A stretch of DNA of 64,000 nucleotides from Escherichia coli (GTDB lineage Bacteria; Pseudomonadota; Gammaproteobacteria; Enterobacterales; Enterobacteriaceae): NCBI RefSeq assembly GCF_048403405.1, contig NZ_CP183129.1, one strand, 5' to 3'. Below the pieces are notes generated by a model. The model was not told where the DNA came from and did no database searches. It saw only the letters and a list, made by a program, of their open reading frames with translations. Each line of letters opens with the position of its first letter. Position 1 is the first letter of the stretch. The translations under genes were made by a program, and so were the position numbers. Shown in pieces: positions 2,095 through 39,584 of this stretch.

Positions 2095-3990
<1,896 letters not shown>

Positions 3991-34180: not shown

Positions 34181-35062
34181 ACCTAAATGCTCGCCGCCGC
34201 AGACACCGTGCACTTCTGCGGTGACGTAGCTCGACTCCTGACTTGCCAGGTAAACATATACAGGGGCCAGTTCCGCCGGTTGCCCCGCACGCTTCATCGG
34301 CGTTTTCTGACCAAACTGCGGGATCTTATCCTGCGTCTGTCCGCCGGAAATTTGCAGTGCTGTCCAGATCGGGCCAGGTGCAACAATATTCACACGAATA
34401 CCTTTCTCCGCGACCTGTTTTGCCAGGCCTCGGCTGTAGTTCAGAATCGCCGCCTTCGTAGCCGCATAGTCCAGTAAATGCGGGCTTGGCTGGTATGCCT
34501 GGATTGACGAAGTGGTGATGATACTGGCACCTTTCGGTAGCAGGGGGATCGCTTCCTGGGTTAGCCAGAACAGCGCGAAAACGTTAATGGCAAAGGTCTT
34601 TTGAAACTGTTCGCTGGTGAGGTCTGCAATATCAGGAATGGCAACCTGTTTCCCGGCGACCAGCGCCATAATATCCAGCCCGCCTAACGCCTTATGCGCT
34701 TCGTGAACCAGCGAACGGGCGAATTTCTCATCGCTTAAATCGCCTGGCAGCAGGACGGCTTTGCGTCCGCATTCTTCAATGATCTTTTTCACATCCTGAG
34801 CGTCTTGTTCTTCTACGGGAAGATAACTGATCGCCACGTCAGCCCCTTCACGCGCGTAAGCAATGGCGGCAGCGCGACCGATTCCGGAATCGCCCCCTGT
34901 CACCAGTGCTTTACGATCTTTCAGGCGACCGCTACCTACATAGGTTTTCTCGCCGCAATCCGGCACCGGTGTCATTTTCGCCTGGATGCCTGGCGTCGGT
35001 TGTTTCTGTTTGGGATATTCACCAGTGTAATACTGCGTGGTCGGGTCTTTTAAATGAGACAT
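34178..35062 (-). CDS. yghA: Short-chain dehydrogenase/reductase YghA
   Basis: About 294 aa; Rossmann motif [10 protein letters not shown]; start taken at the second Met. Confidence 0.9.
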
Positions 35063-35183
35063 CATTTTTCTCCCTTCAGGTTCAACGTCCTTTAAGGGTA
35101 GACGCTCTCGATGCGTTGATAAGGGAACCAGGAAGATCCCTAACCCTCAGAATTATGCGACAAAGGTTTAACGGATATGTTGA

Positions 35184-35747
<564 letters not shown>

Positions 35748-35754
35748 TCTGATT

Positions 35755-35780
35755 CGGGCGCGGTTCTCGCGCCCGTTATT
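35755..35780. terminator. Hairpin between convergent yqhA and gpr
   Basis: Stem cgggcgcg/cgcgcccg with a 5-nt loop, followed by TTATT. Confidence 0.5.
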
Positions 35781-35786
35781 AACAGG

Positions 35787-36827
35787 TCATTTATCGGAAG
35801 ACGCCTGCCACAGATTCAGCTCGCCATCGGCGATATGCTGATCAATCTGCGCCAGCTCCTCGGTGCTAAATGTCAGATTATTCAGCGCCTGCACGTTCTC
35901 CTCAAGTTGCTCCGCGCGGCTGGCACCAATCAATACCGAGGTGACGCGATCATCTTTCAGCAACCAGCTTAACGCCATTTGCGCCATTGATTGTCCACGC
36001 TGCTGTGCCATTTCATGCAATAAGCGCAGGCTGTTGAGGTTGGCTTCGGTGAGCATTTTCGGCGTCAGACCACGAACTTTATTCCCTTCACGATGCATCC
36101 GTGAATCTTGCGGAATACCGTTGAGATATTTTCCGGTCAGCAATCCCTGAGCCAGAGGAGTAAAGGCAATGCAGCCCACGCCGTTATTTTGCAGAGTATC
36201 CAGCAGGCCGCTTTTATCCACCCAGCGGTTCAGTAAATTGTACGAAGGTTGATGAATTAACAGCGGAATTTTCCACTCGCGCAGTAACTCGACCATTTTT
36301 TGCGTCCGCTCTGGCGAGTAAGAGGAGATCCCGACATAAAGCGCCTTACCGCTTTGTACCGCATGAGCCAGCGCAGAGGCGGTTTCTTCCATCGGCGTAT
36401 TTTCATCGACGCGATGAGAGTAAAAGATATCGACATACTCAAGCCCCATACGCTTCAGGCTTTGGTCGAGGCTGGCGAGCAGGTATTTACGTGAACCGCC
36501 AGAGCCGTAAGGGCCGGGCCACATATCGTAGCCAGCCTTGGTAGAGATAATCAGTTCATCGCGATAAGCGGCAAAATCCTCGCGCAGCAGGCGACCAAAG
36601 TTCTCTTCTGCGCTTCCTGGAGGCGGCCCGTAATTGTTGGCTAAATCAAAGTGCGTAATGCCTAAATCAAACGCTTTACGCAGGATCGCACGCTGTGATT
36701 CCAGCGCGTTAACGTGACCGAAATTGTGCCATAAACCGAGCGATAACGCGGGCAGGCGTAAACCGCTTTTTCCGCAATAACGGTACTGCATCTGCCCGTA
36801 ACGCTCGGGATTCGCTAACCAGACCAT
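35787..36827 (-). CDS. gpr: L-glyceraldehyde-3-phosphate reductase (aldo-keto reductase; YghZ)
   Basis: 346 aa; aldo-keto reductase family. Confidence 0.93.
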   Translation of the reverse strand: MVWLANPERYGQMQYRYCGKSGLRLPALSLGLWHNFGHVNALESQRAILRKAFDLGITHFDLANNYGPPPGSAEENFGRLLREDFAAYRDELIISTKAGYDMWPGPYGSGGSRKYLLASLDQSLKRMGLEYVDIFYSHRVDENTPMEETASALAHAVQSGKALYVGISSYSPERTQKMVELLREWKIPLLIHQPSYNLLNRWVDKSGLLDTLQNNGVGCIAFTPLAQGLLTGKYLNGIPQDSRMHREGNKVRGLTPKMLTEANLNSLRLLHEMAQQRGQSMAQMALSWLLKDDRVTSVLIGASRAEQLEENVQALNNLTFSTEELAQIDQHIADGELNLWQASSDK

Positions 36828-36983
36828 GACCTCTCCTTTCCACCATTCAATTTCGAAACAATGTTTCTAGTTTAGCGATTCATCAGCGCGTATCCCGTAG
36901 TCTGGCTCACAGAGTGACGAAAAACTGGGCAAAAACACGCGCTTATGCTTTGCTTAAAAAAACACCAACTGAGGAGTGCAACG

Positions 36984-37871
36984 ATGCCGCGTTTAACCGC
37001 CAGAGATTTCCCACAAGAGTTGCTGGATTACTATGACTATTACGCTCACGGGAAAATCTCGAAACGTGAGTTCCTCAACCTTGCGGCGAAGTATGCGGTA
37101 GGCGGGATGACGGCATTAGCGTTGTTTGATTTGCTCAAGCCAAATTATGCGCTGGCGACTCAGGTAGAGTTTACCGACCCGGAAATTGTTGCTGAGTACA
37201 TCACGTATTCTTCACCAAATGGTCACGGCGAGGTGCGGGGTTATCTGGTGAAGCCCGCAAAGATGAGCGGCAAAACGCCAGCCGTAGTGGTGGTGCATGA
37301 GAATCGTGGACTGAATCCGTATATCGAAGATGTGGCACGGCGAGTGGCGAAGGCGGGGTATATCGCCCTGGCACCTGACGGCTTAAGTTCCGTTGGAGGT
37401 TATCCGGGTAATGATGATAAAGGTCGTGAGCTGCAACAGCAGGTTGATCCAACCAAACTGATGAATGATTTCTTTGCCGCAATTGAGTTTATGCAACGCT
37501 ATCCGCAAGCGACAGGCAAAGTGGGTATTACCGGATTTTGCTATGGCGGTGGCGTATCGAACGCGGCAGCGGTCGCGTATCCGGAACTGGCCTGCGCGGT
37601 GCCGTTTTATGGTCGACAGGCACCCACCGCCGATGTGGCGAAGATTGAAGCGCCTTTACTACTCCACTACGCGGAACTGGACACCCGAATCAACGAGGGC
37701 TGGCCTGCTTACGAGGCGGCGTTGAAAGCCAATAATAAGGTCTATGAGGCGTATATCTATCCGGGGGTTAATCACGGATTCCATAATGATTCCACGCCCC
37801 GTTATGACAAATCTGCCGCCGATCTTGCCTGGCAAAGGACGCTGAAATGGTTCGATAAATATCTCTCCTGA
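36984..37871 (+). CDS. yghX: Dienelactone hydrolase family protein, apparently intact
   Basis: Start set at the ATG at 36984, preceded by GAGGAG; about 295 aa; uninterrupted reading frame. Confidence 0.75.
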   Translation: MPRLTARDFPQELLDYYDYYAHGKISKREFLNLAAKYAVGGMTALALFDLLKPNYALATQVEFTDPEIVAEYITYSSPNGHGEVRGYLVKPAKMSGKTPAVVVVHENRGLNPYIEDVARRVAKAGYIALAPDGLSSVGGYPGNDDKGRELQQQVDPTKLMNDFFAAIEFMQRYPQATGKVGITGFCYGGGVSNAAAVAYPELACAVPFYGRQAPTADVAKIEAPLLLHYAELDTRINEGWPAYEAALKANNKVYEAYIYPGVNHGFHNDSTPRYDKSAADLAWQRTLKWFDKYLS

Positions 37872-37989
37872 TAGGTTTATCTCTTACGGGATTACGTCTT
37901 AAACAAGCATGAAAAAATAGCGTGCGCAAAAGTCGTTCTTTGCCTAAAATATCGCTATATATGGCAATATATAGCGAATGAGGTGAACG

Positions 37990-38277
37990 ATGAATAACCA
38001 TTTTGGTAAAGGCTTAATGGCGGGATTAAAAGCAACGCATGCCGACAGTGCGGTTAATGTGACAAAATACTGTGCCGATTATAAACGCGGTTTTGTATTA
38101 GGCTACTCACACCGGATGTACGAAAAGACCGGAGATCGCCAGCTTAGCGCCTGGGAAGCGGGTATTCTGACGCGCCGCTATGGACTGGATAAAGAGATGG
38201 TAATGGATTTCTTTCGTGAGAATAATTCCTGTTCTACGTTGCGCTTTTTTATGGCCGGTTATCGCCTCGAAAATTGA
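37990..38277 (+). CDS. yghW: DUF2623 family protein YghW
   Basis: 95 aa; located immediately upstream of hybO. Confidence 0.8.
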
Positions 38278-38465
38278 TCAAACATACGTATTATCTTGCT
38301 TTAATTAATTACACTAATGCTTCTTCCCTTCGTTTTAGCGCCCCGCCGCAGTATCATGATATCGATAACCATAATAAATGTGTGGTAAATGGCGCATCGA
38401 TCGCATTATTGATTTTGCGATTGAGGCAAAATATATGCCAGGTCTTCGCAACGGAATAACTATAA

Positions 38466-39584
38466 ATGACTGGAGATAACACCCTCATCCATTCTCACGG
38501 CATTAACCGTCGTGATTTCATGAAGCTTTGTGCAGCATTAGCCGCCACCATGGGGTTAAGTAGCAAAGCCGCTGCAGAGATGGCCGAATCGGTTACTAAC
38601 CCGCAGCGTCCGCCAGTTATCTGGATTGGCGCGCAGGAGTGTACCGGTTGTACGGAATCTCTGCTTCGTGCAACGCATCCAACGGTAGAAAACCTCGTGC
38701 TGGAGACTATCTCTCTGGAGTATCACGAAGTGCTTTCCGCCGCCTTCGGTCATCAGGTCGAAGAGAACAAACATAACGCTCTCGAGAAGTACAAAGGGCA
38801 GTATGTGTTAGTGGTGGATGGTTCCATCCCATTAAAAGATAATGGTATTTATTGCATGGTTGCCGGTGAGCCGATTGTGGATCACATCCGCAAAGCGGCG
38901 GAAGGCGCAGCAGCCATTATCGCTATCGGTTCCTGCTCTGCGTGGGGCGGTGTTGCCGCAGCTGGAGTTAACCCAACTGGCGCTGTCAGCCTGCAAGAAG
39001 TTCTGCCAGGCAAAACTGTAATCAACATTCCTGGCTGCCCGCCGAACCCGCACAACTTCCTCGCGACCGTTGCGCACATCATCACTTACGGCAAGCCGCC
39101 GAAACTGGATGACAAAAACCGTCCGACCTTCGCCTATGGCCGTCTGATTCACGAACACTGCGAACGTCGCCCGCACTTCGATGCTGGTCGTTTTGCCAAA
39201 GAGTTCGGTGATGAAGGCCACCGCGAAGGCTGGTGCCTGTACCACCTCGGCTGTAAAGGGCCAGAAACTTACGGCAACTGCTCAACGCTGCAATTCTGCG
39301 ATGTTGGCGGTGTGTGGCCGGTGGCGATTGGTCACCCGTGCTATGGCTGTAACGAAGAAGGTATCGGCTTCCATAAAGGCATCCATCAGCTTGCCAACGT
39401 CGAAAACCAGACTCCGCGTTCACAGAAACCGGATGTTAACGCTAAAGAAGGCGGCAACGTCTCTGCGGGCGCTATTGGTTTGCTCGGCGGTGTGGTTGGG
39501 CTGGTTGCCGGTGTCAGCGTGATGGCGGTGCGTGAACTGGGTCGTCAGCAAAAGAAAGATAACGCTGACTCACGGGGAGAATAA
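38466..39584 (+). CDS. hybO: Hydrogenase 2 small subunit (Tat substrate)
   Basis: 372 aa; twin-arginine motif RRDFMK; [NiFe]-hydrogenase small-subunit cysteine pattern. Confidence 0.96.

Follow-up and report, generated by a model that had tools for sequence, protein, structure and literature searches.

The closest described counterpart of the yghX gene studied here is that of Escherichia coli O157:H7 str. Sakai, which is the same gene at the same locus. Its product was crystallised without residues 1-58 and deposited as an 'uncharacterized protein' (PDB 4ZV9, 2.0 Å, released 2015), and it differs from the protein examined here by a few substitutions, e.g. S76P, V69F and Y229F. E. coli K-12 MG1655 shares the locus between gpr and yghW, the promoter region, the ribosome-binding site and the start codon, but has lost 2 bp from codon 37 and 1 bp from codon 157. 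NC_000913.3 lists its yghX as the pseudogene b4658, PGAP labels it 'frameshifted', and only a 47-aa product, YqhI (b4755), is made. Pseudomonas ClcD (carboxymethylenebutenolidase, PDB 1DIN and its variants) has the alpha/beta hydrolase fold, a Cys-His-Asp triad and a Glu next to the oxyanion region in common with YghX, but is ~25% identical to it and has no N-terminal leader. The closest non-orthologous solved relative, a putative dienelactone hydrolase of Klebsiella pneumoniae (PDB 3F67; E 8.5e-24, 28% identity), has the nucleophile motif G-F-C-x-G-G, but belongs to another subfamily and shows no match to the YghX leader.

The literature on yghX deals almost wholly with the use of the K-12 locus for integration. 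One old proposal, resting on a GxCxG motif, put the gene forward as a candidate cPHB polymerase (PMC3709699). YqhI was detected in K-12 by chromosomal epitope tagging, and the paper that named it places it beside "yghX_2" and reports a domain match only to glycosyltransferase GTB (PMC6001520). YqhI was also studied as a candidate regulator among the small proteins induced by Mg2+ starvation, in work that never mentions yghX and in which YqhI failed to complement the low-Mg2+ growth phenotype of delta-yqhI (PMC11429745). That yghX is intact in most E. coli and frameshifted in K-12 is already known, as are its family assignment (RefSeq annotation) and, from the PDB, how the O157 orthologue is folded. 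Mildly new are the precise course of the two-step decay in the K-12 clade, the identity of YqhI as an orphaned leader, and the question of Tat export raised by a leader with a conserved n-region; beyond such bookkeeping the significance is small.

The window, a stretch of 64,000 nucleotides of E. coli DNA, carries the genes yqhA, gpr (divergent), yghX, yghW and hybO in the standard E. coli arrangement. Nine complete E. coli chromosomes (U1, TUM14771, GN02461, DLI.6n, 4621, MS 69-1, Nord58, B19695 and OX030728) match its 20-kb segment 27000-47000, which begins at metC/yqhD and extends to the hyb operon, with 100% identity. The standard gene order and this identity thus indicate an ordinary E. 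coli chromosome, and since only 17 genomes are ≥99% identical over the 20 kb, it comes from a fairly small clone group. An initial annotation of this DNA had noticed an uninterrupted frame of about 295 codons with a GAGGAG ribosome-binding site and, just upstream of the start, a run of A residues at 36957-36963. The features of this region are as follows.

36956..36962, plus strand: A7 run within the 5' UTR, outside the coding frame and 22 nt ahead of the yghX ATG
36971..36976, plus strand: Shine-Dalgarno sequence GAGGAG, read directly, with a 7-nt spacer to the ATG at 36984
36984..37871, plus strand: yghX coding sequence, 295 codons and TGA, encoding a YghX family (dienelactone hydrolase-like) alpha/beta hydrolase

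Both the frame and the ribosome-binding site were found as first described, and the A run does lie upstream of the start, though one base away from the position originally given. The frame is open throughout and ends with the TGA at 37869-37871. In strain U1 the identical DNA is annotated as an intact yghX (WP_001445837.1). As a random open frame of 295 codons has a probability of about (61/64)^295 = 7e-7 per start, a chance origin is very unlikely, and there are strong family matches besides. The start was placed at 36984 on account of the RefSeq/PGAP annotation (U1), the NCBIfam model NF041440, which covers residues 3-294, and the N-termini of the orthologues in other genera. A longer in-frame ORF of 308 aa, from the ATG at 36945, was rejected: this codon is without a Shine-Dalgarno sequence, and the annotation, the model and the orthologues all start at 36984. 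In K-12, translation does begin at the yghX start codon in vivo, as epitope tagging of YqhI, the 47-aa product, showed (PMC6001520). No Rfam structured RNA family was matched in 35000-39500. Promoter and terminator scans gave no more sites than in shuffled sequence, and none that was promoter-like upstream of yghX. yghX is monocistronic and divergent from gpr, with a GAGGAG site of its own.

The product matches NF041440 (YghX family hydrolase) from end to end, with 585.4 bits against a cut-off of 460 (residues 3-294 on model positions 1-292). It also matches Pfam PF01738 (DLH) with 164.7 bits against a cut-off of 21 (residues 84-294 on profile positions 1-217 of 217). These two matches agree with the initial naming of the gene as yghX of the dienelactone hydrolase family. 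A third match, of 74.9 bits over residues 1-36, is to Pfam PF23678, 'YqhI-like'. Over residues 59-294 the protein is 98% identical to 4ZV9. An AlphaFold2 model with 32 diverse relatives as input (mean pLDDT 96.3) superposes in Foldseek on 4ZV9 with 0.5 Å rmsd and a TM score of 0.98, and on the Pseudomonas dienelactone hydrolase 1DIN with a TM score of 0.84 (rmsd 2.2-2.4 Å for 1DIN and its variants). The protein encoded in the window is a YghX family hydrolase of full length; it belongs to the dienelactone hydrolase family and has an alpha/beta hydrolase fold. The triad residues were mapped by HMMER alignment with Pseudomonas dienelactone hydrolase (DLH) 4U2C, a C123S variant in 1DIN numbering. 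Conservation was read from two alignments, one with orthologues of other enterobacterial genera (A1) and one of more distant YghX-family relatives (A2).

37539..37541, plus strand: Cys186, predicted nucleophile in G-F-C-Y-G; aligns with DLH 123, invariant in A1 and ≥90% in A2
37680..37682, plus strand: Asp233, triad acid; aligns with DLH Asp171, invariant in A1 and A2
37773..37775, plus strand: His264, triad base; aligns with DLH His202, invariant in A1 and ≥90% in A2
Glu106 of YghX: aligns with DLH Glu36, conserved in A1 and A2

Judged from these residues, YghX would act as a cysteine hydrolase in which the Cys186-His264-Asp233 triad, together with Glu106, would hydrolyse an ester, lactone or thioester. 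ClcD sits in an operon of the chlorocatechol pathway. Since yghX stands alone, in an organism with no chlorocatechol pathway that we know of, its substrate probably differs from that of ClcD. The gene neighbourhoods of two distant homologues were examined; the contexts were unrelated and gave no operon clue to function.

The initial annotation had taken yghX to be a frameshifted pseudogene in K-12 and had pointed to the A run as a typical slippage site. Pairwise alignment with K-12 located the frameshifts. The two sequences are 98.4% identical at yghX and not the same across 36984-37871: there are 11 substitutions in the coding sequence, and exactly three bases are missing in K-12, at two sites.

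37092..37094, plus strand: codon 37 (TAT, Tyr), site of the K-12 2-bp deletion; AAG TAT GCG becomes AAG TGC G (pairwise alignments)
37452..37454, plus strand: codon 157 (ACC, Thr), site of the K-12 1-bp deletion, which removes one C; CCA ACC AAA becomes CCA ACA AA (pairwise alignments)

Both sites are undeleted in the window, where the frame is continuous, and the gene is intact as first proposed. In K-12 the deletion in codon 37 shifts the frame and translation ends after 47 residues; the deletion in codon 157 brings back the original frame downstream, far too late to matter. The frameshifted K-12 pseudogene is real, with its two lesions inside the coding sequence, but the A run has no part in it. 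A7 runs are generic slippage sites, and one is present here; slippage in it, with the window differing from K-12 at that place, was considered as a rival origin of the frameshift. Yet the run lies outside the frame, all three deleted bases fall in codons 37 and 157, and between 36941 and 37002 there is not one difference between the window and K-12, the run included. The run is thus irrelevant to the K-12 frameshift, and we give slippage within it practically no chance of being the cause.

The order of the two losses can be read from strain G4/9, which has the K-12 SNP background and the 2-bp deletion only, in an allele that is otherwise identical. The 2-bp loss thus came first, and the 1-bp loss followed in a gene that was already dead. 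Decay in the K-12 lineage, and in related strains that are for the most part K-12-like, began with the loss of 2 bp in codon 37, leaving the 47-residue product, and went on with the loss of 1 bp in codon 157. Taken as a whole, we are highly confident that yghX is in its ancestral, intact state in the window and encodes a hydrolase of the dienelactone hydrolase family with a Cys186-His264-Asp233 triad, and that the gene decayed in the K-12 lineage in two steps in which the A run was not involved.

Calling attention to an intact copy had implied that such copies are rare, which the genome counts contradict. yghX belongs to the E. coli core genome, and its DNA was found in 5,425 of 5,426 complete E. 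coli genomes. The exact 64-nt K-12 junction of the 2-bp deletion was present in at least 1,247 of the 5,426, and that of the 1-bp deletion in at least 1,197, both counts being lower bounds, since a SNP close by is enough to take an allele below the ≥99% identity band. When the ranked matches were sampled at even intervals, the 2-bp deletion occurred in 9 of 30 and 7 of 24 rows and the 1-bp deletion in 8 of 30, the remaining rows being of undeleted length. Roughly 25-30% of the 5,426 complete genomes carry the K-12 lesions and ~70% are without them, in a genome set that is rich in K-12 laboratory derivatives and with scoring that covered the two K-12 sites only. The 90%-identity cluster that holds E. 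coli YghX has 5,276 member sequences. Orthologues in Citrobacter koseri, Pseudescherichia, Enterobacter, Kosakonia and Leclercia are 294-298 aa long and 85-92% identical, with no internal gaps. Between the window and the allele of EC958 (B2), which is annotated as intact, there are 38 synonymous and 6 non-synonymous differences (dN/dS = 0.042). From the genome counts, the colinear orthologues of other genera and the dN/dS ratio it follows that intact yghX is the ancestral and majority state and is under purifying selection, and that K-12 is the exception.

These data also bear on the origin of the window allele, which might be a K-12-type pseudogene repaired secondarily by reversion or recombination. 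Recombination does occur at the yghX locus. Strain EcN_Sk (NZ_CP172017.1) carries both K-12 deletions together with a SNP-dense mosaic patch of 17 clustered substitutions in ~100 bp, equivalent to window 37335-37430, which suggests a recombination patch within an already dead yghX. A repaired allele in the window nevertheless seems to us extremely improbable: alleles without the deletions occur over the whole 95-100% range of identity within the species, the proteins of the outgroup genera are colinear and ungapped, and the deletion alleles are nested on one SNP background, first with the 2-bp deletion only (G4/9) and then with both (K-12).

In strain NCTC9041 (NZ_LR134296.1) only a 96-bp 3' fragment of yghX was found (3002-3097), adjoining IS1F and away from the usual locus, with brnT/brnA on one side and mdtM on the other. 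Its position next to IS1F at a different locus indicates that the region was rearranged or deleted by IS1 in this strain.

An open frame may still belong to a cryptic or decaying gene that is no longer functional and has so far acquired no stop. Roughly one in four sequenced E. coli manages well with no intact yghX, the gene is without a reported phenotype or substrate, and in K-12 its locus serves engineers as a neutral integration site (PMC7677707). Against this stand the dN/dS of 0.04 between divergent E. coli alleles, the invariant catalytic triad and the 85-92% identity of the orthologues from other genera. The YghX family is moreover a broad one, in which 606 cluster representatives reach E ≤ 1e-30, and the O157 protein folds and crystallises. 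We therefore regard loss of function behind an open frame as very improbable. The initial proposal that an intact copy is functional in this background is well supported by the same triad, dN/dS ratio, orthologues and O157:H7 structure, and the window gene would, on this evidence, make a working enzyme. Because yghX is intact and under purifying selection in roughly 70% of strains, the treatment of the locus in K-12 metabolic engineering as a neutral 'pseudogene' site is not transferable to those ~70% of E. coli, the window strain included.

The 47-residue K-12 product, MPRLTAKDFPQELLDYYDYYAHGKISKREFLNLAAKCGRRDDGISVV, is exactly YqhI: it consists of the first 36 residues of YghX (with R7K) and 11 out-of-frame residues. 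The segments concerned are 36984-37094 in the window and 3147597-3147740 in NC_000913.3. YqhI is thus the relic of a truncated yghX. Since it is made of these 36 residues and a frameshifted tail, the 'YqhI-like' family PF23678 is the N-terminal leader of YghX-family hydrolases. That YqhI is the truncated N-terminus of a hydrolase calls for caution in assigning functions to it and to the Pfam family that bears its name.

The leader itself was examined for export signals.

36984..37157, plus strand: N-terminal leader, residues 1-58, with 'YqhI-like' 1-36, S-K-R-E-F-L at 26-31, a hydrophobic stretch and A-L-A at 56-58

Residues 37-48 form a 12-residue uncharged stretch rich in A/G/T/L, which is followed by K52 and the A-L-A motif, and the crystallised construct of 4ZV9 begins just after this motif, at residue 59/60. 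The leader thus has the h-region, the basic residue and the A-x-A cleavage motif of a Tat signal peptide. In place of the two-arginine consensus S/T-R-R-x-F-L-K, however, it has S-K-R-E-F-L, with K27 and R28. Among the top 150 representatives of 50%-identity clusters, the N-terminal leader pattern was present in 65. The basic pair in these 65 relatives is RR in 51, KR in 11 and another pair in 3, and 53 of 66 scored sequences, a set that counts the window protein, show an AxA motif at the expected distance. Further out in the family the hydrophobic stretch varies and is rich in Ala/Gly/Ser/Thr, as in Tat h-regions. The TIGR01409 model (TAT_signal_seq, cut-off 16.7 bits) gave no match to the window YghX; among homologues, P0128 scored 20.0 bits, above the cut-off, and P0122 fell just below it with 15.5.

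Residues 8-24 (DFPQELLDYYDYYAHGK) are invariant across the enterobacterial genera and are recognisable throughout the family as L-Y-D-x-Y-x-H, a conservation that is unusual for the n-region of a signal peptide. AlphaFold2 predicts residues 1-60 as four short helices with a pLDDT of 89-95, a confidence atypical of signal peptides. Both observations speak against a signal peptide or at least complicate that reading, as do the KR pair and the missing TIGR01409 match of the E. coli sequence. In the alternative, the enzyme would be cytoplasmic and residues 1-58 would extend it at the N-terminus as a folded part. On the other side, the succession of S-K-R-E-F-L, hydrophobic stretch, Lys52 and A-L-A reads like a Tat signal, and so do the RR pair in 51 of 65 relatives, the AxA motif in 53 of 66 and the passing score of P0128. 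KR variants of Tat signals are exported in a few natural cases. Tat-dependent export of YghX to the periplasm by a Tat-like KR signal peptide is, in our judgement, evenly balanced between yes and no. A literature search for Tat-dependent dienelactone hydrolases found nothing relevant.

A broader reading built on such export can be put forward tentatively, and we lean slightly against it. The YghX family would consist of Tat-exported periplasmic cysteine hydrolases with a conserved n-region, DFPQELL-x-L-Y-D-x-Y-x-H-G, at which a dedicated chaperone might dock. The enterobacterial members would have KR in place of RR, and YqhI would be the orphaned signal-peptide fragment of a dead gene. Should the export reading be true, the induction of YqhI by Mg2+ starvation would reflect how the ancestral yghX promoter is regulated.

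Downstream of yghX, a perfect 11-bp inverted repeat, TCGCTATATAT-GGCA-ATATATAGCGA, was observed at 37952-37977. Its end lies 13 nt short of the start codon of yghW (37990); it abuts the yghW ribosome-binding site, and was flagged as terminator-like on the minus strand by the scan. The repeat may serve yghW as an operator or as a hairpin that controls translation.
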